A DNA stretch of 64,000 bases from an uncultured delta proteobacterium. GTDB taxonomy: Bacteria; Desulfobacterota; Binatia; Binatales; Binataceae. The notes under the pieces are model-generated. The model ran no database searches and was not told where the DNA came from. It saw only the letters and a list, made by a program, of their open reading frames with translations. The translations under genes were made by a program, and so were the position numbers. Of this stretch, positions 38,333-61,869 are shown one piece after another; the stretch's first letter is position 1; each line of letters starts with the position of its first letter. The DNA lies in assembly GCA_963789835.1 (NCBI GenBank), contig CAWBMF010000006.1, positions 73,491 through 137,490 of the forward strand, read 5' to 3'.

Positions 38333-39406
38333 CTAGACCAATTCGATTGGATGCTCGCGCTTGGGCGTGACGCGGCCGACGATGGCGGCCTCGCGATGGC
38401 CGCAGTTCTGAAGTTCGGCGAGCAGGGCGAGAGCTTGATCGTCGGGGAGCGCGATCAGCAGGCCGCCCGAGGTTTGGGGGTCGAATGCGATCGTCGCGAT
38501 CTCGTCGGAGACTTCGTCGGAGATGCGGACGCTGGGCGCGTAGAACTCGCGATTGCGCTCGCCGCCGCCGGGGATCATTCCGGCGCGGCATTGCTCGAGC
38601 ACGCCCGGCAGCAGCGGCAAGTCGGATTCCTCGAACACGAAGGTGACGCGGCTGCCCTCGGCCATTTTGAGCGCGTGGCCGACGAGGCCGAAACCGGTGA
38701 CGTCGGTGGCGGCGTGGACGTCGTAGTTGAGCATCGCGGATGCGGCGGCGGCGTTGAGTTGCGTCATCGAGCGGACGGCGGCCTGGTAGGATTCGTCGCC
38801 GAGGGCGTCGCGCTTGAACGCGGTCATCAGGATTCCCGTGCCGAGCGCCTTGGTCAGCACGAGCGCGTCACCGACTTGCGCGCCGACATTGCGGACGATT
38901 CGACGCGGATCGATCACGCCGGTGATGGCCATGCCGAATTTCACTTCTTCGTCGGCGACAGTGTGACCGCCGACGATCACGACGCCTGCCTCGCGCGCTT
39001 TCTCGGCGGCGCCGCGCAAAATATCGGCGAGCATCTCGCCGGGCAGACCGCTTTGCGGCCAGCATACGATGTTGAGCGCCGTGCGCGGCACCCCGCCCAT
39101 CGCATAGACGTCCGACAACGCGTTGGCCGCGGATATTTGGCCGTAGGTGAAAGGATCGTCGACCACCGGCGTGAAAAAATCGACGGTGTTGACGATTGCG
39201 AGGTCGTCGGAAAGACGGAACACTCCGGCGTCGTCGCCCGTGGAGATTCCGACGAGCAAATCAGGGTGGCTCGGCAACTCGAGCCGCGCGAGGACTGCGG
39301 AGAGGTCCGCCGGACCGAGCTTACCGGCTCAACCCGCAGCCTTGCACCGCGCAGTCAGGCGAACGAGATCGCCCCGCGAGGGATTGTTGTCCTTGTTCCT
39401 GGACAT
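38333..39406 (-). CDS. selD: selenide, water dikinase SelD, Sec-containing form (in-frame UGA at 39331..39329)
   Basis: Track ORF 38333..39277 begins at an internal TTG. The same frame upstream reads MSRNKDNNPSRGDLVRLTARCKAAG-TGA-AGKLGPADLSAVLARLEL-PSHPDLLVGISTGDDAGVF. TGA occupies the catalytic G(C/U)xxK position. Downstream motifs: DFFTPVVDDPFTYGQISAANALSDVYAMGG, VIVGGHT. Confidence 0.9.
39309..39328 (-). promoter_or_regulatory. candidate SECIS-type hairpin immediately 3' of the selD UGA
   Basis: The mRNA reads UGA GCCGG UAAGCUCGGU CCGGC, a 5-bp GC stem with a G/U-containing loop. It is a short stem and has not been checked against a covariance model. Confidence 0.35.
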
Positions 39407-40231: not shown

Positions 40232-42169
40232 TCAGGAGGACGGAGCGGGCGACCGGAGGCGGCGGGTGTCGCCTACCCGGGTGGTCACGCCCGTGTGGTC
40301 GAAGTGATCGAGCAGGGCGATCGCGAATTTGCGCGAGGCGCCGAGCAGGTCGCGGAAGGTCGCGGCGGTGATGGCGTCGTGAGTTTTCAGATAGTCGACG
40401 AGGCGGGTGCGCGCGGCGTCGGCGGCGGCGCGGGAGAAATACAAGTCGCTGGCGATTTTGACTACGCGGCCTTCGCGTTCCATCGCGACCAGCACGGTTC
40501 TCAGGTGCGGCAATTGGCTGGTGGGAATTTTCAGTGACTCGGCCAGTTGCTTGAGATCGGGGGGCTGGAATTCGGCGTGCTCGAGCGCGGCCGCCACCCT
40601 CGTGCCGAGCGTTTCTGCCGCGCCGCCCAGTTGCACGCGATGGCTCTTCAGGCGCAGCGTGCTTTCCTCGCGCACGATTTCGGATTCGTGGCTGATGCGA
40701 TCGACGATCGGACGGAATGCGCGCGCGCCGATTTCGTACGGCAGCCGCGTGCGCAGCGCTTCCATCTCGAGTCCGGGAGACAGGGGCTCGCGCTTGTGAT
40801 GCGCCGCGAGCGCGTCGAGCGCGAAGTGTTTCAGCGCATCCCACCTGGTCCGCGTCGTGAATGCCACTTCGTCGCCAATCGAGAGCTTGATGAAGCGCGG
40901 CGTTTCGCGCAGGGCAGCGTCGGCCTCGGCGATTGGGATGTTCATGAGCGTCGCGATCCGGCTGGGGCCGAGGGCGAAGCTTTCCTGCAAGTTGATCAGC
41001 GCTTCGATAGCGTCGGCGCCCGACGAATTTTTGAGCATCAGGAGATTGGCGCGATAGGCCTCGAGCGGCTTGCGGACGCGGCGGCCGAGCGGGTTCAGCA
41101 CGATGCCGCCGCCGAGAGTGCGCGAGTTGGTTTCGTCGCGGATGACGAAGCGATCGCCCGCAAGCGCGACGACGGGATCTTCCGCGACGAGCTGCGCGAG
41201 GCCGGCGGCCTTGGGCGCGATCGTGCCGGCCTCATCGAGGACGATTGCGCGCGCGATGGTTTCCGCCGTGCCGATGAAGAGCCGCACGCGGGTGTTGTTC
41301 TTGAGTGCGCGCTTGGCGGCGGGGCGAATTTCGAGCCATGCGTCGAAACGCGCGGTGGCGGAGTCCACGCGCTCGTCGGCGAGGACGTCGCCGCGAGCGA
41401 GGTCGAGTTTCTCGGCGCCGGTGAGATTGAGCGCGACGCGCTGGCATAGCCCGGCGCTCTCGACCGAATCGGAATGCACCTGGATCGAGCGCACGCGCAC
41501 TTCATTGCCCGAGGGCAGCACGCGGAGCTTGTCGCCGACGTGGACCTCGGCGCCCATCGCAGTGCCGGTGACGACGATGCCGTGTCCCTTGATGACGAAC
41601 GCGCGATCGAGTGGCAGGCGGAAGACGCCGGTGGCGCGGCGCGCCTGGAAGCCGTCGAGCTGGCGGACGATTTCGGCGCGCAATTGCTCGAGGCCGGCGC
41701 CGGTGGTCGACGAGACCTCGATGACGGGCGCGCCGGCGAGGGTGGTGCCGTCGGCCAGCAGTTCGATTTCGTCGCGCACGTCGCGGAGGCGGGCGGTGTC
41801 GGCGAGGTCGGCCTTGGTGATCACGAAGATGCCGCGGCGCGCGCCGAGCAGATGGAGGATGTCGAGATGCTCCTCGGTCTGCGGCATCACGCCGTCGTCG
41901 GCCGCGACGGTGAAGAGCACGAGGTCGATGCCGTGGGCGCCGGCGAGCATGTTGCGGATGAAGCGCTCGTGGCCGGGGACGTCGATGACGCCGGCGCGGG
42001 TGCCGTCGGGGAGGGTGAAGTAGGCGAAGCCGAGATCGATCGAGATGCCGCGTTCTTTTTCTTCCTTGAGGCGATCGGTGTCCTGGCCGGTGAGGGCTTT
42101 GATGAGCGCGGTTTTGCCGTGATCGATGTGGCCGGCGGTGCCGATGATGGCGTGGGTGGTGGTGGCCAT
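40232..42169 (-). CDS. selB: selenocysteine-specific translation elongation factor SelB
   Basis: 645 aa. [39 protein letters not shown] (GTPase G1/G3/G4), then a long winged-helix C-terminal region as in SelB. Confidence 0.92.
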
Positions 42170-51348: not shown

Positions 51349-54300
51349 ATGCCAGCTGCTCGTGAAATCATAATCTCCGCGCGCGCATCCGAGCGCGTCG
51401 CCGCCGCGCGCGCATGGCTCGAGTCGCAGCCGCCGGCGACCGAAGTCCTCGTCATCGCGTCGGTCAAGGAAGCCGCCGACGACCTCGTGCGCGCCTTCGC
51501 AGTCGCGCGCGGCGCGATGCTCGGAGTGCATCGCCTGACGCTCGACCGCCTCGTCGGCCTGCTCGCCGCCGAAGAACTCGCCGACGCGGGCCTCGCGCCG
51601 GCGGACGGACTGGCAGCCGAAGCCGTCGCCGCGCGGGCAGTCTTCCGCCTCGCGCCGTCGGGAGCGCTCGCCCATTTCGAGCCGGTGCTGGATCGCCCCG
51701 GTTTCTCGCGCGCGCTCGCGCGCACGCTGATCGAGCTGCGATGGAACAACATCGGCGCCGGCGACCTGCGCGCGCTGGGCGCCGCCGGCGAGGCAATCGC
51801 CGCGACGCTCGCGCAGTTCGACGCCGAGCTGGCCGAGGCGAAGCTGATCGACCGCGCCGGGATGCTGCAAGTCGCAACGCGCGCTGCGCTCGCGAGCGAA
51901 CCGCCGCGCTTTGTCGGACTGCCGATTTTATTGCTCGATCCTTCGGTCGACAGCGCACTCGACCGCGACTTTATCGCAGCGCTCGCCGCCCGCGCGCCAT
52001 CGGTTCTCGCGACGCTTCCCGCTGGCGACTCTCCCGTGCAGACCATCCTCGAAGATGCGCTCGGCGTTCGCGCAAATGCTCAGTCGCCGACCGTCGACGA
52101 GGCCACTGCGCCGTCGCTCGAACGCCTGCAGACACATCTGTTTGCCGACACCGCCCCGCCTGAGCGCGACGTCGATGAAACCGTCACGGTGATTTCCGCG
52201 CCGGGCGAGATGCACGAGTGCGTCGAGATCGCGCGGCGAATCGCGGCCGAAGCGCGCCGCGGCGTCCCGTTCGATCGAATCGCCGTGCTGCTGCACGACC
52301 CCGTCCGCTACGCGCCGTATCTGCAGGAAGCGCTCGCCCGCGCCGACATCCCCGCGTACTTCGCGCGCGGCACGCGGCGCCCCGAGCCCGGCGGCCGCGC
52401 GATGCTCGCGCTGCTTTGCTGCGCCTCGGAAAATCTCTCGGCGCGCCGCTTCGCCGAATATCTGTCGCTCGCTCAGGTGCCCGACGCCGATCGCCAGCGC
52501 GATGACCAGCCCGCCGTCAGTCCCGACGCCGAGCTCGCGCCAATATCGCTCGAGTCGGATCTCGAAGTTGAACGGAGCGCCACTCCAGTTGACGACGGCG
52601 ACGCGTCCGATCCGGTCCCGGTGATCGATGGAACGACGCGGGCGCCCTGGCGATGGGAACGCCTGCTGGTCGACGCGGCAGTGATCGGCAGCGCGCAGCG
52701 ATGGAAGAAAAGATTGGCCGGTTTGGGCAACGAGCTCATTTCGCGGCGCAAGGAGATTGCGGACGACGACGCCCGCGTCGCCGGCCTGGAGCGGCGAATC
52801 CTCGACCTCGCGCATCTCGGCGAAGTCGCGATGCCGATCATCTCGATGCTCGAAGCGGCGCCGCGCGATGCGACCTGGGGCGACTGGCTCAAGTTCCTGC
52901 GCGGTCTGGTCGACCTGGCGATTCGCGATCGCGAGCCGGTGCTGGCCGCGCTGGCGGAGCTCGAGCCGATGGCGCCGGTCGGTCCGGTCGGACTCGACGA
53001 GGTGCGCTTCGTGCTGAACGATCGGCTCGGGCGGCTGGAGGCGCCGCGGCGCGTTCGCCGCTACGGCGCCGTGTTCGTCGCGCCGCCGAATCGCGCGCGC
53101 GGCCTGGAGTTCGACGTCGTTATCGTCCCCGGTCTGGCCGAGCGGATGTTTCCGCGCAAGCTCACCGAGGATCCGATTCTTTCCGATGTGGCGCGCGCGC
53201 AGCTGAGTCCGTATCTCGCGCGCAATGAGCGGCGGGTCGGTGCGGAGCGGCTCGCGCTGCGAATTGCGGCGGGCGCGGCGCGCACGCGTGCGATGTTTTC
53301 TTATCCGCGCGTCGATCTCGACCAGGGCCGTCCGCGAGTGCCGTCGTTCTACGCGCTGGAAGTCCTGCGCGCGGCGGAGGGCAAGCTGCCCGGCTTCGAC
53401 GAGCTGGCGACTCGCGCGGCGTCTCAGCCGGTGACGCGATTGTCGTGGCCGGCGCCGGCGAATCCGGCCGACGCGATCGACGATGCGGAATTCGATCTGG
53501 CGGTGCTCGACAAACTGGTCGACGCCGATCCGCTGACCACGACCGGCGCCGCAAACTATCTGCTCGGCGCCAACGTGCATCTCGGCCGGGCGCTGCGGGC
53601 GCGGGCGCGGCGATGGCTCCGGCGATGGACGCCGGCGGACGGCCTGGTCGATCCCGACGCGGCTGCGCTGGCGGCGTTGGGGAAGCATCAGTTGAGCGCG
53701 CGATCGTACTCGCCGACGGCGCTGCAGCATTTCGCGGCGTGTCCGTATCGATTTTTTCTGCAAGCGATCCATCGCTTGGAACCGCGCGAGGAGCCCGAGG
53801 CGATCGAGACGCTCGACCCGCTGACGCGCGGCAGTATTTTCGCGGACGTGCAGTACGAAATCCTGTCGGCGCTCAGGGAGCTCGACGTGCTGCCGGTGAC
53901 GCCGGAGGACCTGGACGACGCGTCGGGGCTGCTCGACGAGAAGCTCGACGAAGTTGCGGCGGAGCGGCATGACGAGCTGGCGCCGGCGATCGAGCGCGTG
54001 TGGCTCGACGGAATCGAAAGTATCCGCGCCGATTTGCGCGAATGGCTGCGGCGCGCGGCGGAGGATTCGGAGCATTGGCGGCCCGAATGGTTCGAGCTCG
54101 GCTTTGGGCTGAGCGATCGCGCCAAGGCGGATCCCCATAGCTCGCCCGATCCGGTCGTTATCGAAGGCGGGCTCAGTTTGCGCGGATCGATCGATCTGCT
54201 CGAGCGCGATCCGGCGGGGCGAATCCGCGTGACCGATCACAAGACCGGGAAAGTGCGCGCGGAGAAGCACTTCGTGATCGGCGGCGGCAAGACGCTGCAG

Positions 54301-54618
54301 CCGGTGTTGTATGCGATCGCGGCGGAGCGCGTGCTCGACGAGAAGATTTCCGCGGGGCGGCTTTACTACTGCACCGCGGCGGGCGGCTACGAGGAGCGAG
54401 TTGTCGAAATCAACGACGACGCGCGAAAGGCGGCGCGCGATTTCGTCGCAATCGTGAAGGAGTCGCTCGAAACCGGATTTTTGCCGGCGGCGCCGGACGA
54501 TCGCGAGTGCGACTGGTGCGACTACAAGCGTGTGTGCGGGCCGTACGAGGAGCGGCGCTCGCGAATCAAACCGAAGGCGCGGCTCAATTCGTTGACGCGG
54601 CTGCGCGAGATGCCATGA
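51349..54618 (+). CDS. addB: AddB-type helicase-nuclease subunit (PD-(D/E)XK nuclease with Cys cluster)
   Basis: 1089 aa. C-terminal nuclease GSIDLLERDPAGRIRVTDHKTGK with four Cys (FAACPYRFF ... RECDWCDYKRVCGP), as in Fe-S AddB. The stop overlaps the addA ATG (ATGA). Confidence 0.8.
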   Translation: MPAAREIIISARASERVAAARAWLESQPPATEVLVIASVKEAADDLVRAFAVARGAMLGVHRLTLDRLVGLLAAEELADAGLAPADGLAAEAVAARAVFRLAPSGALAHFEPVLDRPGFSRALARTLIELRWNNIGAGDLRALGAAGEAIAATLAQFDAELAEAKLIDRAGMLQVATRAALASEPPRFVGLPILLLDPSVDSALDRDFIAALAARAPSVLATLPAGDSPVQTILEDALGVRANAQSPTVDEATAPSLERLQTHLFADTAPPERDVDETVTVISAPGEMHECVEIARRIAAEARRGVPFDRIAVLLHDPVRYAPYLQEALARADIPAYFARGTRRPEPGGRAMLALLCCASENLSARRFAEYLSLAQVPDADRQRDDQPAVSPDAELAPISLESDLEVERSATPVDDGDASDPVPVIDGTTRAPWRWERLLVDAAVIGSAQRWKKRLAGLGNELISRRKEIADDDARVAGLERRILDLAHLGEVAMPIISMLEAAPRDATWGDWLKFLRGLVDLAIRDREPVLAALAELEPMAPVGPVGLDEVRFVLNDRLGRLEAPRRVRRYGAVFVAPPNRARGLEFDVVIVPGLAERMFPRKLTEDPILSDVARAQLSPYLARNERRVGAERLALRIAAGAARTRAMFSYPRVDLDQGRPRVPSFYALEVLRAAEGKLPGFDELATRAASQPVTRLSWPAPANPADAIDDAEFDLAVLDKLVDADPLTTTGAANYLLGANVHLGRALRARARRWLRRWTPADGLVDPDAAALAALGKHQLSARSYSPTALQHFAACPYRFFLQAIHRLEPREEPEAIETLDPLTRGSIFADVQYEILSALRELDVLPVTPEDLDDASGLLDEKLDEVAAERHDELAPAIERVWLDGIESIRADLREWLRRAAEDSEHWRPEWFELGFGLSDRAKADPHSSPDPVVIEGGLSLRGSIDLLERDPAGRIRVTDHKTGKVRAEKHFVIGGGKTLQPVLYAIAAERVLDEKISAGRLYYCTAAGGYEERVVEINDDARKAARDFVAIVKESLETGFLPAAPDDRECDWCDYKRVCGPYEERRSRIKPKARLNSLTRLREMP

Positions 54619-57600
54619 CACTCATGAATCCGACTCTCATATCCGACCAGGCGGTGCGCGATCGGATTCGCGACGACCTCGACGTCACGCTCGTGATCGA
54701 GGCGGCGGCGGGCACCGGCAAGACGACGGCGCTGGTGAATCGAATCGTCTCGGTGATCGGGTCCGGGCGCGGCGAGCTGGCGCGAATCGTCGCGGTGACG
54801 TTTACCGAAAAGGCGGCCGGCGAGCTGAAGCTGCGCCTGCGCGCCGAAATCGAACGGGCGCGCCAGGGCACGGAACCTTCGAGCGAAGGGCGCGCGCGTT
54901 TCGACCTGGCGCTCAAGCAACTCGAGGAAGCGCGGATCGGAACGATTCATTCGTTTTGCGCCGACCTGCTGCGCGAGCGGCCGGTTGAGGCGCGCGTCGA
55001 TCCGATGTTCGAAGTCGCGCCCGAGGACGTTGCGGGCGAGATGTTCGACGCGGCGTTCGAGCGATGGTTCGAGCGTATCCTCGACCAGCCGGGCGAGGGC
55101 ATGCGGCGGCTGCTGCGGCGGCGCGATTTGTCGGCGCGCACCGGGCCGCGCGATATCGCACGGCACGCGGCGCTCGAGCTGATGAACTGGCGCGACTTCG
55201 ATTCGCCCTGGCAGCATTCGCCGTTCGCGCGCGACGCAGAAATCGACGCGATAATCGCGGAAGTCGAAGCGCTCGGCAAACTTGGCGAGCTCGGCGAGGA
55301 CGACGACTGGCTGGCGAAGAGCCTCCAGGATATTGCCAAGCCGGTAAACGAATCGACGCGGCTGGAACCGGTGCGCGGGCGCGACTATGACGCGCTCGAA
55401 TCCGTGCTGATCAGACTTTGCACGGGCCGGCATTGGAACTGGAAGGGATACGGCGGCGGCTTTGGCGAGGTCGAGCGCGACGAGATTTTCCGGCGGCGCG
55501 CCGCGTTGCATGAGCGGCTGAAGAAATTTCGCGACGACGCGGGCGCAAATCTCGCGCCTTTGCTGCGCGACGAGTTGTGGCCGGTGGTCGGCATTTACGA
55601 GGACCTCAAACGCCGCGCGGGGCGGCTCGACTTCCTCGATCTGCTGCTGGTCGCGCGCAACCTGGTTCGCGACAATCCGGCGGTGCGCGCCGAGTTGCAA
55701 CATCGCTTCACGCATATTTTTGTCGATGAATTCCAGGACACCGATCCGCTGCAGGCGGAAATCCTGCTGCTGCTTTCGGCCGCGGATGACGGCGAGACCA
55801 ATTGGCTGAAGGTCAGGCCGATTCCCGGCAAATTATTTATCGTCGGCGATCCGAAACAATCGATTTACCGTTTTCGGCGCGCCGACGTTTCGCTCTACCA
55901 GGCCGTCAAGCAACTGCTGCTGATGCATGGCGCGCAACTCGAACATCTGACGGTCAGCTTTCGCGCGACGCCGTCGATTCAGACGATGGTCAATGCGGCG
56001 TTCGCGCCGCTGATGAGCGCGGAATCGGGCACGCAGCCGCGGTATGCGCCGTTGACGCCGTATCGCGCGGAGCCCACGTCGCAGCCGTCGATCGTCGTGC
56101 TGCCGGTGCCGGAGCCGTACGGCGATTTTGGCCGGGTCGTGAATTGGAAAATCGACGACTCGCTTCCCGAGGCGATTGCCGCGTACGCGCGCTGGCTGGT
56201 GCATGAGAGCGGATGGACGGTGACCGAGCGCGAGGCGCCCGAGGTGCGCGTGCCGATTCGCCCGCGCCATATCTGCATCCTGTTTCGCCGCATGAATTCC
56301 TTCGGGCGCGACGTGACGCGGCCGTACCTGCGCGCGCTCGAAGCGCGGCATCTGCCGCACGTGCTGGTCAAGGGCGGGTCGTTCAACGAGCGCGAAGAAG
56401 TGATCGCGATGCGCAATCTGCTGGGCGCAATCGAGCGGCCCGACGACGAGCTGACGGTGTTCGCCGCGCTGCACGGTCCGGTGTTCGCGCTGTCGGACGC
56501 GGCGCTGCTCGAATTTCGCATGACGCTCGGCAGTCTGCATCCGTTTCGCCGGCTGCCCGACGACTTGCCCGAGAGTCTGAAGGAAGTGAAGGGCGCGCTC
56601 GAGGTGATCAAGGGATTGCATCGAGGGCGAAATCGAAGGCCGATCGCGGAGACGATCGCGACGCTGCTGGCGACTACGCGCGCGCATGCCGGATTCGCGA
56701 TTTGGCCGACGGGTGAGCAGGCGCTCGCGAACGTCATGCGAATCATGGACCAGGCGCGGCGCTACGAAGCGCGCGGCGGCACGACGTCGTTTCGCGCGTT
56801 CGTCGATGAGCTGGAAGCGCGGGCCGAGCGCGACGAGGCGAGCGAGACGCCGATCGTCGAGGAAGGGACCGAGGGCGTGCGCATAATGACGGTGCATCGC
56901 GCGAAAGGCCTCGAGTTCCCGGTCGTCATTCTGGCCGATATCACCTGCAACGAGACTCGCGAGCGCGCGTCGCGATATATCGAGCCCGCATCGAAGCTGG
57001 CCGCGATGGAACTTGCGGGATGCGCGCCGCGCGAGCTGCAGGTGAACCAGGCGCGAGAGCATGAGCGCGACCAGGAGGAAGCAATCCGGCTGCTGTATGT
57101 GGCGACGACGCGCGCGCGCGATCTGATCGTCGTGCCTGCGGTTGGCGACGACCCGCAGGAGAGCGACGGCTGGCTCGCGCGGCTGAACCCTGTGATCTAT
57201 CCGGCGAATGCGGAGCGGCGCGCGCCCGTGTCGTCGCATCCGGCGGGATGTCCCGAATTCGGCGACGACAGCGTGCTGACGCGGCCGCCGAAAGCGCCGG
57301 GCAAAGTGAAATCGGTGTCGCCGGGATTACATCGCGCGCAAACCGGCGAGCATCAAATCGTCTGGTGGGATCCGCGGCTGCTGATCCTGAACGTCGAAGA
57401 GAAGATGGGACTGCGGCAGGACAGGCTGCTGCAGGCCGACGAGAGTCGCCAAATTTCCGATCGCGGAATCAAGCTGCACGAGGATTGGAGCGCGCGCAGG
57501 GCGGAGATGCTCGCGGCGGGAACGACGCCGCGGTTAAACGTCGCGACGGCGACCGAGCTCGCGCTGGCGGCGCCGGCTGGCGGACCGGCGTCGGCGGAGA

Positions 57601-58082
57601 CGATCGCAATCGAAGAGACGAGCCGCCAAAGCGGCCGGCCTCATGGCAAGCGCTTCGGCACGCTCGTGCATCTGACGATGCTGCGCGCGCCGATCGACGC
57701 GGACGCGCGCCAGATTGGCAGGATCGCGGAGAGCGCGGCCAAGATGATCGGCGCGACGGAGGATGAGGTCGCGGCGGCTACGACTGCGGTGGAAGCGGCG
57801 CTCAAGTCTCCGCTGATGCTGCGCGCCAAAGCTGCGCAGACGGTGATGCGTGAATGTCCGCTGATGATCAAGCTCGAAGACGGCACCGCGGTTGAGGGAA
57901 TCGCGGACTTGGCGTTCGCGGAGAATACCGGCGATGGCGCAGTCTGGACGGTGGTCGATTTCAAGACCGACGTTGAGGTCGCGCCGCGGCTCGACGAATA
58001 TCGCACGCAGATCAGGTTCTATGTGCGCGCGGTCCGGGAGAGCACGGGGCGGCCGGCCAGCGGGGCTATATTGTGGATATGA
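54615..58082 (+). CDS. addA: AddA-type UvrD/Rep superfamily-1 helicase-nuclease
   Basis: Inner ATG 54615 of track ORF 54507..58082. EAAAGTGKTT (Walker A), VTFTEKAAGEL, FVDEFQDTDPLQ, IVGDPKQSIYRFRRAD, MTVHRAKGLEF, YVATTRAR. C-terminal nuclease IADLAF...VVDFKTD. Confidence 0.88.
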   Translation: MTLMNPTLISDQAVRDRIRDDLDVTLVIEAAAGTGKTTALVNRIVSVIGSGRGELARIVAVTFTEKAAGELKLRLRAEIERARQGTEPSSEGRARFDLALKQLEEARIGTIHSFCADLLRERPVEARVDPMFEVAPEDVAGEMFDAAFERWFERILDQPGEGMRRLLRRRDLSARTGPRDIARHAALELMNWRDFDSPWQHSPFARDAEIDAIIAEVEALGKLGELGEDDDWLAKSLQDIAKPVNESTRLEPVRGRDYDALESVLIRLCTGRHWNWKGYGGGFGEVERDEIFRRRAALHERLKKFRDDAGANLAPLLRDELWPVVGIYEDLKRRAGRLDFLDLLLVARNLVRDNPAVRAELQHRFTHIFVDEFQDTDPLQAEILLLLSAADDGETNWLKVRPIPGKLFIVGDPKQSIYRFRRADVSLYQAVKQLLLMHGAQLEHLTVSFRATPSIQTMVNAAFAPLMSAESGTQPRYAPLTPYRAEPTSQPSIVVLPVPEPYGDFGRVVNWKIDDSLPEAIAAYARWLVHESGWTVTEREAPEVRVPIRPRHICILFRRMNSFGRDVTRPYLRALEARHLPHVLVKGGSFNEREEVIAMRNLLGAIERPDDELTVFAALHGPVFALSDAALLEFRMTLGSLHPFRRLPDDLPESLKEVKGALEVIKGLHRGRNRRPIAETIATLLATTRAHAGFAIWPTGEQALANVMRIMDQARRYEARGGTTSFRAFVDELEARAERDEASETPIVEEGTEGVRIMTVHRAKGLEFPVVILADITCNETRERASRYIEPASKLAAMELAGCAPRELQVNQAREHERDQEEAIRLLYVATTRARDLIVVPAVGDDPQESDGWLARLNPVIYPANAERRAPVSSHPAGCPEFGDDSVLTRPPKAPGKVKSVSPGLHRAQTGEHQIVWWDPRLLILNVEEKMGLRQDRLLQADESRQISDRGIKLHEDWSARRAEMLAAGTTPRLNVATATELALAAPAGGPASAETIAIEETSRQSGRPHGKRFGTLVHLTMLRAPIDADARQIGRIAESAAKMIGATEDEVAAATTAVEAALKSPLMLRAKAAQTVMRECPLMIKLEDGTAVEGIADLAFAENTGDGAVWTVVDFKTDVEVAPRLDEYRTQIRFYVRAVRESTGRPASGAILWI

Positions 58083-58153: not shown

Positions 58154-59254
58154 ATGGCGATGGACATTATCTATGGCGAACGAGCGAATCCCGGCGTCGA
58201 GGCGGACGCTGCCGGCGGCGGCCTGTGGCTTAATCGCGCTGACCTCAAGCGCGTCGCGGGATGGGAGTACAAGCCGCAGGGATTCTGCAAGGGCGAGGTC
58301 TGCGTGCCGGTGCCCGACGCGCGCAAGGACGAGTTCGTCGACGCGGGGGGCCGATACAATCTGGCGGCGCTCGCGACTCTGATCGGACAGCCGGTCGTGG
58401 TCGACGCGGAGTTCAACGTAGCGTGCGTCGGCGAGGCCGCGTCAGAACGAAAGCGGATGCTGACGTCGCTCGACGCGCCGGATTTCACGCTGCCCGATCT
58501 CGACGGCAAGATGCATTCGCTCTCCGACTATCGCGGCAAGAAAGTTTTCGTCGTCTCATGGGCGTCGTGGTGAGGATGCCGCTTTGACCTGCCAGTCTGG
58601 CAGGCCCTTTACGAAGAACTCGGACCGAACGGATTCATGCCGATAGCGATCGCATTCGATAGCGGCGGCAACGCGGCGACCGAGCCGTGGATCAAAGCGG
58701 CCAAGCCCACCTACCCGTGCCTGATCGATCGGCGGCATATCGTTGCCGAGCTTTACGACATGGTCAATGTGCCGACTGCAGTGTGGATCGACGAGCGCGG
58801 GAAAATTGTGCGGCCCAGTGAGCCCGCCGGCGTGACCGACGCGTTCAGAAAAATGAACCGGACCAATTTTTCGATTCCCACCGACGCGATGAACGAGCTG
58901 CAGGCCAAGCGCAAGGCCTACCAGGACGCGATTCGCGATTGGGTGGCGAACGGATCGAACAGCCGCTTCGCGCTCAGCGAGGCGGAAGTGCTCAAGCGGA
59001 TGCATACGCCGGACGACAGCCAGGTTCGCGCGGCGGCGAATTTCCGGCTCGGCGAATACCTGTTCGAGAATGGACACGCGGAGGCGGCGAAGAAATATTT
59101 CGAGGAAGCCAAGCGGCTGCGGCCGGAAAGCTGGAACTACAAGCGGCAGGCATGGGCGCTCGAGGATCCGATGAAGGCAGGCGGCCCGGAGTTCTGGGCG
59201 GCGGTCGATTCGCTGGGTGACGGCAAGTATTACCCCGGACCGGAGGACATCTAA
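58154..59254 (+). CDS. thioredoxin-fold (TlpA/ResA/AhpC-TSA-like) selenoprotein candidate, in-frame UGA at 58571..58573
   Basis: Track ORFs 58154..58573 and 58637..59254 share one frame, separated by a single TGA and 21 sense codons. The joined sequence DFTLPDLDGKMHSLSDYRGKKVFVVSWASW-U-GCRFDLPVWQALYEELGPNGFMPIAIAFDS puts TGA where TlpA-like proteins have the first Cys of WCxxC. selD and selB lie 16-20 kb away. Confidence 0.75.
58588..58604 (+). promoter_or_regulatory. candidate bacterial SECIS hairpin
   Basis: CCTGCCA GTC TGGCAGG (7-bp stem with G/U in the apical loop) starts 14 nt after the UGA at 58571..58573, within the usual bacterial SECIS spacing. Confidence 0.5.
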
Positions 59255-59270
59255 GCGACCCCCGCACCGA

Positions 59271-60171
59271 ATGGTTAATCGCGAGATATTAGTTGTCGGC
59301 TACGGCTCGTTGCTCAGCGGGTACGGGTTGCTCGCCGAGCGGCGCGGCGGCGCGAGCCGGTTAGTCGCGCGCGATGTGCATCCGGTCGTGATTCATAATG
59401 CGCGGCGCGGACTCGCGAAGCCTTCGAGTCATGGCAAATATCTCGCGATGGATATCGAGCCGGTCGAGCGCAGTGCTCCGATCACAGCGTCGATTGCGGC
59501 CGATGACCGCGTCGGTGGGATTGGCGGGCTGCTGCTGACGTTCGCGCGTGATTGTGCACCGCTGATCGCGCGGCGCGAGGAATACGATCCTGATGCGTTC
59601 GAGCGGTTGATCGGGATTGCCGAGCGCGCGGGCAAGCCGCTGGGCGAGTATCTGATTGAGATCGCGCGCGCGACGAATTTCGATTTGCTCGACTATCGGA
59701 TCAAGCTGCGCTCGCTGCTCGACTACACGTCGCCGGGATATATTTTCCATCCGATCGAAATCGACGACGGTCGAATCGCCATCATTGCGATCGGTTCGGG
59801 CTTCGATGGCAGCGGCGATCCGAAGATCGTTTCGCGGCGGCGGGAATTCGGGATGGAGCGGCTGCTGTCGCTCGACGAGTCATTGCGTAGCTGAACTTCG
59901 CCAATTCGATCGCGCGGGACAAATCGGATACTACGCCGAGTGTATTCTCGGCGGGCTGCATGGGCTGGACGTTGGCGACCTGGCGGCGGGATTCGACGCC
60001 GATGCGGGATGCGCACGCGAGCTCGCCGATCATCTCGGGCCGATAGCGCGGGGCGAGCGCGAGCGCTTTCTCGAGGCCACCTCGCTCGACGCGGTCCGCT
60101 ACGGCGAGCGGTTTTCGAATCGACGACCGCCGAGCATGGCGACATTTCTGAAGCTGGCGGGAGTAGTATAG
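59271..60171 (+). CDS. hypothetical protein with GGCT/ChaC-like N-terminal YGSL motif (apparent frameshift near 59870-59895)
   Basis: ATG 59271: MVNREILVVGYGSLLSGYG... in track ORF 59217..59894. It continues as ...VAELRQFDRAGQIGYYAECILGGLHGLDVGDL... in track ORF 59656..60171. Function unknown. Confidence 0.5.
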
Positions 60172-60830: not shown

Positions 60831-61869
60831 ATGGCATTGCAACCGAAATTCGCGGAGGTCGAGACGCCGTTTGCGGTCGAGCGGGCGCTGGTCGGAGAGC
60901 ATCCGGCGATCGTGAAGCTGCGCGCGTTGATCGAGCGCGTCGCGCCGACCGAAGTGACGGTGCTTATAACCGGCGAGAGCGGCACCGGCAAGGAAGTTGT
61001 CGCGCAGGCGATACATACGCTGTCGCCGCGCAGCGCGCAGCCGTTCGTGCCGGTGAACTGCGCAGCGATTCCGCATGACCTGCTCGAGTCCGAGATGTTC
61101 GGGCATGAGCGGGGTGCGTTCACGGGCGCGGCGGGATCGCGTCACGGGCTGCTGACGACTGCCGATCGCGGCACGATCTTTCTTGACGAAATCGGCGAGA
61201 TGCCGGGTGCGCTGCAGGCCAAGTTGCTGCGCGTGCTCGAGGACGGCGTGGTGCGTCCGGTCGGCGCGGACCGGGGCGACGCGCGTCAACGTGCGCGTGA
61301 TCGCGGCGAGCAACGTCGATCTCGGCGCGGCGGTGGCGAAGGGCACGTTTCGCGAGGACCTCTTCTATCGATTGCAGGTGGTGCCGATAGTGATCGCGCC
61401 GGTGCGCGAGCGGCGCTCGGACATACCGCTGCTGACCGAGCACTTCCTCGAGCGCGTGCGCGATCGGACGCCGGCGCGCGAACTCGCGATCAGCCGGGAA
61501 GCGATGGTGGCGTTGTGGTCGTACGATTGGCCGGGCAATGTGCGCGAGCTCGAGAATATGATCGAGCGGCTCGCGATCATGTGCGAGGACTCGATTATCG
61601 ACACGTCGATTCTGCCTGAGAACCTGGTTGCGAGCGCGCGTCCCGCTACGGCTCCAATCAAGGTCAAGATGAATAACGGCGGAATGAACCTCAACAACTT
61701 GGTACGAGAATTGGAAGGAAGGTTGATCAACGACGCGCTGAAGCAAACCGGAGGGAACAAGCAGGCTGCGGCGCGGCTGCTTGGACTCAAGCGGACGACA
61801 TTTTCCGCGAAGCTGAGGCGCTGCGGTGTGATAGCCCCGGCATCTTTGGACGAAAGCCGGGAAGGCTAG
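60831..61869 (+). CDS. sigma-54-dependent transcriptional activator, AAA+ plus Fis-type HTH only (apparent frameshift near 61265-61275)
   Basis: [19 protein letters not shown] (Walker A), ERGAFTGA (GAFTGA sigma-54 contact loop), IFLDEIGEM. Then the frame shifts at a GGGG run into [11 protein letters not shown]...FREDLFYRL...[10 protein letters not shown]...[20 protein letters not shown] (track ORF 61183..61869). Confidence 0.88.

Follow-up and report, generated by a model that had tools for sequence, protein, structure and literature searches.

Two open reading frames (ORFs) that share a frame and are parted by one stop codon raise the question of whether the DNA holds two short genes, one broken gene or one intact gene in which the stop codon stands for an amino acid. 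The question arises at positions 58154..59254 (plus strand) of a 64,000 nt stretch of contig CAWBMF010000006.1 (positions 73,491 to 137,490) from an uncultured delta proteobacterium of the Binataceae; this whole stretch is hereafter called the window. As an earlier reading of the letters alone (the sequence-only reading) had described, ORFs 58154..58573 and 58637..59254 lie in the same frame, their sole in-frame interruption being a TGA at 58571-58573, and 21 sense codons separate this TGA from the ATG at 58637. Read through, the gene starts with the ATG at 58154, with GAGG lying 9-12 nt upstream, and ends with the TAA at 59252-59254, i.e. 366 codons plus stop. The 366-residue product contains ...KKVFVVSWASW*GCRFDLPVWQALYEE..., the asterisk marking the TGA, which falls on residue 140 of a motif that would read W136-A-S-W-U140-G-C142, with U for selenocysteine (Sec). 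We consider it highly probable that 58154..59254 is one gene for a Sec-containing thioredoxin-fold protein of the known WAxxUGC_long, or UGC-containing TlpA-like (Prx-like), family, and that its UGA is recoded by way of a hairpin. The sequence-only reading had likewise taken the product for a thioredoxin-fold selenoprotein, with Sec in its redox motif and a Sec insertion sequence (SECIS) hairpin 3' of it, and this proposal is supported by the residues that homologues carry at the column, by a fold that spans the TGA and by the agreement of the hairpin with the published rules for bacterial SECIS (bSECIS) elements.

If the TGA were a real stop, the locus would consist either of two genes, encoding 139 and 205 aa, or of a pseudogene split by a nonsense mutation. 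Gene callers list the relatives as separate 205-226-aa proteins, and an ATG is available at 58637, both of which would agree with such an arrangement. The protein homologue search covered 5.8 billion proteins with Sec replaced by Cys in the query, and the best 120 matches were considered. Around 110 of these are C-terminal fragments of 205-226 aa, covering only the part after the UGA. These are genes that the callers truncated at the UGA, as expected at a Sec codon. Against two genuine genes, the starts that the callers chose for the fragments differ between relatives (MDLPVWQ, MWQALY and MPIAIAF), and GCRFDLPVWQ, the peptide that is best conserved in the family, is encoded by the 21 codons from the TGA to the ATG at 58637. 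Furthermore, the thioredoxin fold and the Pfam and NCBIfam matches run across the TGA. Homologues that end at this position, or that consist of two separate proteins, had been named by the sequence-only reading as evidence against itself; no such pattern was found, and the Pfam domain AhpC-TSA (PF00578) spans the TGA at residues 107-219 with a score of 68.5, the gathering score being 26.

The DNA of the relatives bears on the same point. A scan across genomes, in which each species was represented by one, turned up more than 595 related places, of which the best 80 were kept, and every one of these 80 loci has TGA at exactly the Sec column, as has the metagenome contig L082. The loci belong to Binataceae / Candidatus Binatus, Methylomirabilota/Rokubacteria, Dehalococcoidia, Burkholderiales, Gammaproteobacteria, Vulcanimicrobiota and others; the closest relatives among them, genes with 84-88 % identity in Candidatus Binatus / Binataceae metagenome-assembled genomes (MAGs), share the TGA. 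Since a nonsense mutation would not persist at one column in 80/80 loci across phyla, a real stop at 58571-58573 is already contradicted, and we regard it as extremely unlikely. An error of sequencing or assembly, with TGA standing for TGC or TGG and a true protein of the Cys (or Trp) form, could be argued from the presence of at least one probable homopolymer indel in the window (an extra G at ~61273-61276) and from the existence of Cys forms in the family. However, the probable error at ~61273-61276 is a G-run indel and not a substitution, and TGA stands at this place in each of 80 independent assemblies, which differ in project, technology and phylum and include the 84-88 %-identical relatives. 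The constancy of the column across phyla therefore cannot be explained by sequencing error any more than by a nonsense mutation, and the former can be regarded as virtually excluded.

Ten of the best 120 protein matches are full-length (45-55 % identity), and in the aligned full-length proteins the Sec column holds Cys in seven (WASWCGCR; P0010, P0016, P0071, P0098, P0113, P0116 and P0118), Ser in one and 'W' in two. Searching with the joined protein, U replaced by C, had been suggested by the sequence-only reading as a check, and it yields homologues with Sec (TGA) or Cys at this column. The two 'W' entries, P0025 (from L082) and P0085, both gene calls of the Joint Genome Institute (JGI), show WASWWGCR. 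They would fit a UGA that is read through without selenium, i.e. by near-cognate insertion of Trp or Cys or under a reassigned code, as JGI translated the same codon as W in both. The DNA of L082 has TGA there, hence P0025 is a Sec form whose translation used the wrong code; judging from this codon, the 'Trp forms' of the family in protein databases are translation-table artefacts. The homologues alternate Sec with Cys, which is the usual signature of selenoproteins, and not with Trp. In addition, five of the seven window genes checked (AddA, the AddB-like gene, orf207, the QueD-like gene and selB) have TGA as their normal stop, therefore UGA is not reassigned. The presence of selB and selD, and of a SECIS-type hairpin under RNA-level constraint, also argues against decoding without selenium, which we hold to be very improbable.

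Binataceae-type MAGs harbour a second group of Sec-containing paralogues, around 51-53 % identical (L044, L045, L047 and L049). In the Cys form P0010, ~26 additional residues follow the 'WIxxA' helix; judging from their longer gene spans, the L044-L049 paralogues may have an insertion as well. A Sec-form gene of 47 % identity (L079) lies on a contig labelled as a Klebsiella pneumoniae MAG; for this family the label appears unlikely, and it may be a binning or labelling error.

Components of the Sec machinery are encoded in the window, as the sequence-only reading had noted for selD and selB. The gene selB, encoding the Sec-specific elongation factor, lies at 40235..42169 on the minus strand (TIGR00475, 373 bits, the cutoff being 242), and selD, encoding selenophosphate synthetase, at 38333..39406 on the same strand (TIGR00476, 385 bits for the joined protein). 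The latter also contains an in-frame TGA, at 39329-39331 (...RLTARCKAAG-U-AGKLGPADL...), i.e. it is a Sec-type SelD, a well-known variant, and a second selenoprotein gene in the window. This TGA apparently coincides with the catalytic Cys position of Cys-type SelD, such as that of E. coli. Together with selB and the Sec-type selD, the joined gene indicates that this Binataceae-like soil bacterium uses selenocysteine.

A hairpin within the coding sequence follows the UGA of the selenoprotein gene. It was correctly located by the sequence-only reading as a 7-bp hairpin 14 nt after the UGA: CCTGCCA GTC TGGCAGG, or CCUGCCA-GUC-UGGCAGG in the RNA, at 58588..58604 on the plus strand, with GU in the apical loop and a 7-bp stem where the family consensus has 6 bp. 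It may also be drawn with a 6-bp stem and a 5-nt loop, A-G-U-C-U, the A and U of which pair, and which fits the pattern N1-G-[G|U]-N-N2; the apical loop begins 20-21 nt after the UGA. According to the bSECIS rules (PMC13188914), the apical loop has 3-9 nt, the stem 4-16 bp, the distance from UGA to loop is 16-37 nt and the minimum free energy is -7.5 kcal/mol or lower, with a G in the first two loop positions and the pattern N1-G-[G|U]-N-N2. The window hairpin agrees with all of these published constraints, i.e. loop, stem, position of the G, spacing and free energy. Folded alone it reaches -10.4 kcal/mol, and one of 200 shuffled sequences folds as well. Compared with the SECIS of the E. coli fdhF type, and with bSECIS elements in general (PMC13188914), it is alike in being a coding-sequence hairpin just after the UGA, in the G-U that opens a small apical loop and in a spacing of 16-37 nt. 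In contrast to the fdhF element, its sequence is unrelated, its stem is short (6-7 bp) and it has no conserved extended lower stem; no such lower stem is conserved in the family. Single-sequence folding of the 76-nt region 58565-58640 was no better than that of shuffled sequences (z = 0.02), so that the significance of the hairpin lies in the comparison between genes and not in thermodynamics.

For this comparison, pairing was followed through an alignment (A2) of 72 distinct sequences. The six inner stem pairs are kept in 72/72, while the outer C-G pair has become U-A in five sequences and the next pair has done so in one, giving six cells in which both sides of a pair have changed (i.e. compensatory changes). 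One natural case is L020, where TTG occurs together with CAA. Altogether, 91.5 % of the stem cells are paired, as against 26-58 % when the partner columns are slid. Constraint on synonymous sites was measured as normalised codon entropy in a codon alignment of 78 Sec-form genes, and within the gene this entropy is lowest at the stem codons, whose synonymous sites are far more conserved than those elsewhere. The Leu at +6 after the Sec is encoded by CTG in 74 genes and by TTG in four, never by CTC, CTT or CTA (entropy 0.11, as compared with 0.38-0.86 at other conserved Leu columns), and the Gln at +10 by CAG in 77 and CAA in one (0.10, the other conserved Gln column having 0.52). Likewise, the Cys at +2 is TGC in 76 and TGT in two (0.17 versus 0.59-0.68 at other Cys columns), and the Asp at +5, the third codon base of which is part of the outer stem pair, is GAC in 70 and GAT in seven (0.44 versus 0.71-1.0 at other Asp columns). 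The loop codons, Pro +7 (0.68) and Val +8 (0.60), vary freely. This synonymous-site constraint is stronger evidence for the hairpin than the covariation. The hairpin is present in all Sec forms, including L079, where a Pro to Ser change leaves the stem intact through wobble pairs. Among the Cys-form genes it has been lost in two of five and kept in three (Fisher p = 0.003, uncorrected for phylogeny); with five sequences from around four clades, this loss is suggestive, not decisive.

The protein itself can be assigned to a family. Its residues 27-361, with Sec replaced by Cys, match profile positions 9-350 of the 354 in NCBIfam NF041054, 'WAxxUGC_long, ResA-like WAxxUGC motif-containing protein', with 357.1 bits (E 1.1e-106) against a curated equivalog cutoff of 300. 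We regard this match as decisive for the identity of the predicted protein. The W-A-x-x-U-G-C motif of the model is present, with the U encoded by the in-frame TGA, and so is the 'long' architecture, i.e. N-terminal domain, thioredoxin fold and helical C-terminal domain, as seen in the coverage of NF041054, in a model of the Cys form P0016 and in reads from Global Ocean Sampling (GOS) data. The family was published by Zhang & Gladyshev in 2008 (PMC2398784) as 'Prx-like (UGC-containing)', where it is assigned to pfam00578, has the motif UGC and comprises 46 sequences with Sec and 855 homologues with Cys. One read in the GOS supplement of that paper (PMC2398784) contains ...KKVLLLTWASWUGCRLDVPVWQSIYEELK...NVPSGVWIDEQGKI...DWVKKGANS...FRLGGYY...SWNYLRQ, and the N-terminal part of another (PMC2398784) reads ...CRDDLCIPLNV... 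The window protein aligns to a GOS read filed as '#Prx-like UGC-containing' with 38 % identity (E 5e-63) over residues 68-343. In common with the reads are TWASWUGCRLDVPVWQ, NVPxxVWIDExGKI and DWVxxGxxS...FRLG...SWNYxRQ, one read also having an N-terminal C-x4-C.

The window protein shares with NF041054 the WAxxUGC with Sec, the length, all three domains and a score above the cutoff; nothing essential sets it apart, the window copy coming from a Binataceae-like soil lineage that was not sampled in 2008. Three features had been singled out as unusual by the sequence-only reading, namely the U-G-C motif, the N-terminal domain and a TPR-like C-terminal domain. All three are there, but they are not unusual: the NF041054 profile includes the U-G-C and the N-terminal and helical C-terminal domains, which makes them traits of the family known since 2008. 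The family being published and having a curated NCBI model, the window gene is an ordinary member and not a new one; considering the match to the 2008 family, its finding is an independent rediscovery. A 2026 review lists the family; the UGC family is absent from the main text of Peng et al. (2016). In the full-text literature, no paper was found on 'WAxxUGC', or on 'UGC motif' together with 'selenoprotein', the family being reached through selenoproteome reviews and the GOS supplement, and the names of the protein clusters give 'hypothetical protein' only.

The domain with the U-G-C centre (58472..58810, plus strand; residues ~107-219) is ResA/TlpA-like and has a thioredoxin fold, with Pfam matches to AhpC-TSA (6.7e-19) and Redoxin (6e-14). 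Its closest matches by sequence in the PDB are 3kcm, ResA and TlpA (E 4e-17 to 1e-10), and the thioredoxin domain of the P0016 model superimposes on Bacillus ResA with a Foldseek E of 1e-10 and a root-mean-square deviation of 1.2-1.6 Å over 114-117 columns. Like ResA, TlpA and CcmG(DsbE) (PDB 1st9, 1su9, 1jfu and 3kcm), it has a thioredoxin fold with the ResA-type insert, W-A-[ST]-W before the nucleophile and R/E-x-x-P after it. Unlike them, its motif is U-G-C and not C-x-x-C, with Sec as the predicted nucleophile, and the alignment to 3kcm needs a one-residue gap (WASWCG-CR against WATWCPPCR), the motif being one residue shorter than CxxC. The window protein also differs in its extra N-terminal and C-terminal helical domains, and in having neither signal peptide nor membrane anchor, whereas ResA, TlpA and CcmG are extracytoplasmic. 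Over the whole protein, the highest mean of any 19-residue Kyte-Doolittle window is 1.23, and over the first 60 residues it is 0.63, so that no segment is hydrophobic enough to point to export. The protein is thus probably soluble and cytoplasmic, in contrast to ResA and TlpA. The scores for the specific models are below the curated cutoffs, i.e. 74.8 versus 170 for ResA (NF002854) and 43.5 versus 230 for TlpA (NF047696), and the StoA model is also far below. With peroxiredoxins and the Prx-like UxxC selenoproteins, the protein shares the Pfam AhpC-TSA domain, and the family was first filed as 'Prx-like'. However, it has no P-x-x-x-T-x-x-C, the corresponding stretch being V-S-W-A-S-W-U with Ala137, not Thr, three residues before the Sec, and the peroxiredoxin equivalog models score far below their cutoffs. 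Hence, of the TlpA/ResA/AhpC-TSA pattern recognised by the sequence-only reading, ResA and TlpA hold as the closest solved relatives, while the likeness to AhpC and peroxiredoxins exists only at the level of the fold.

In the model of P0016 (predicted local distance difference test, pLDDT, 94.4; predicted template modelling score, pTM, 0.90), the protein consists of three confident domains, with helices at 248-357. The all-helical, TPR-like C-terminal domain (58880..59251, plus strand) is indicated by this model, by the coverage of the NCBIfam profile and by weak Pfam TPR_8/TPR_2 matches at residues 293-325, which are below the gathering score. The N-terminal alpha/beta domain (58154..58456, plus strand) comprises ~100 residues; when the first 101 residues of the window protein were modelled alone with AlphaFold2, the prediction was confident (pLDDT 91.9). 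Foldseek found no significant match for this domain in the PDB (best E 0.28), and with the full P0016 model it returned matches to the thioredoxin domain only. C45 and C50, which form a C-x4-C in the N-terminal domain, are invariant in 78/78 Sec-form genes together with U140, G141 and C142; C189 is not invariant.

Several observations weigh against one continuous gene with a recoded UGA. The covariation in the stem is modest, with two variable pairs and one slid control that reaches the same covariation score. The stem encodes the conserved peptide L-P-V-W-Q, so that the demands of the protein likewise account for much of its conservation, and three of the five Cys forms still carry the hairpin. 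Rfam gave nothing for the whole window at gathering thresholds, which leaves the hairpin with no independent RNA model; as nothing in Rfam matched, no Rfam match for the hairpin is to be expected, and a permissive scan of 58450-58750 gave a chance snoRNA match only (E 7). Neither selA nor tRNA-Sec is in the 64-kb window, which is devoid of any tRNA gene. Moreover, the full-length model is that of a Cys homologue with 53 % identity (P0016) and not of the window protein, and the insertion of selenium at the UGA is itself a step that we infer from sequence.

If the UGA is recoded as proposed, SelB with GTP and Sec-tRNA(Sec) would bind the hairpin at 58588-58604 and deliver its cargo to the ribosome when the UGA at 58571-58573 is in the A site. 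The selB gene that would provide the factor lies on the opposite strand, 16 kb upstream; the selenophosphate would come from SelD. In the protein, Sec140 would sit where the first helix has its N-terminus, i.e. at the site of the nucleophilic Cys of CxxC proteins, act as the attacking nucleophile and form a selenenylsulfide with Cys142 in a U-G-C centre one residue shorter than CxxC. Given such a selenenylsulfide centre in a ResA-like fold, the enzyme would be a thiol/selenol oxidoreductase. Centres of the C-x-C type form strained, relatively oxidising rings; accordingly, oxidation, isomerisation or peroxide reduction may be favoured over simple reduction. One could go further and imagine that the N-terminal domain is an unseen fold whose C45-x4-C50 dithiol serves the strained U-G-C selenenylsulfide as an internal redox relay or as a substrate-mimic; the two would then make up an oxidoreductase that is self-contained, cytoplasmic and Sec-dependent, and whose substrate class is unlike those of ResA, TlpA and peroxiredoxins; this is a speculation that draws on the modelled domain, and we consider it rather unlikely.

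The value of the locus is one of annotation. Most public metagenome and MAG records cut the gene to a 'hypothetical' fragment of 205-226 aa, sometimes with the UGA given as Trp; joining both ORFs gives the right protein, and there is little new biology in it.

The gene order AddA, selenoprotein gene, orf207 and QueD-like gene is conserved only within Binataceae. Gene neighbourhood was therefore rejected as functional evidence, as synteny confined to this family says nothing about the function of the selenoprotein. Directly upstream, 51349-58082 (plus strand) holds an AddB-like gene with a C-terminal Cas4-type nuclease domain and an AddA/RecB-like helicase-nuclease gene; both are below the equivalog cutoffs, hence they form a divergent AddAB pair. 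Downstream, at 59271-59894 (plus strand), follows a 207-aa ORF (MVNREILVVGYGSLLSGYG...) with no NCBIfam match. Its synteny with the selenoprotein gene holds within Binataceae, and near the N-terminus it has a GYGSL motif reminiscent of gamma-glutamylcyclotransferase-like proteins. Further on, at ~60831-61869 (plus strand), the gene of a sigma-54-dependent activator is split over two frames by the extra G mentioned above. The G-run reads GACCGGGGCGAC in the window and GACCGGGCGAC in L012, and the related genes in L003, L004, L012 and L013 read straight through; the split is probably a homopolymer sequencing error, or possibly the mark of a pseudogene.

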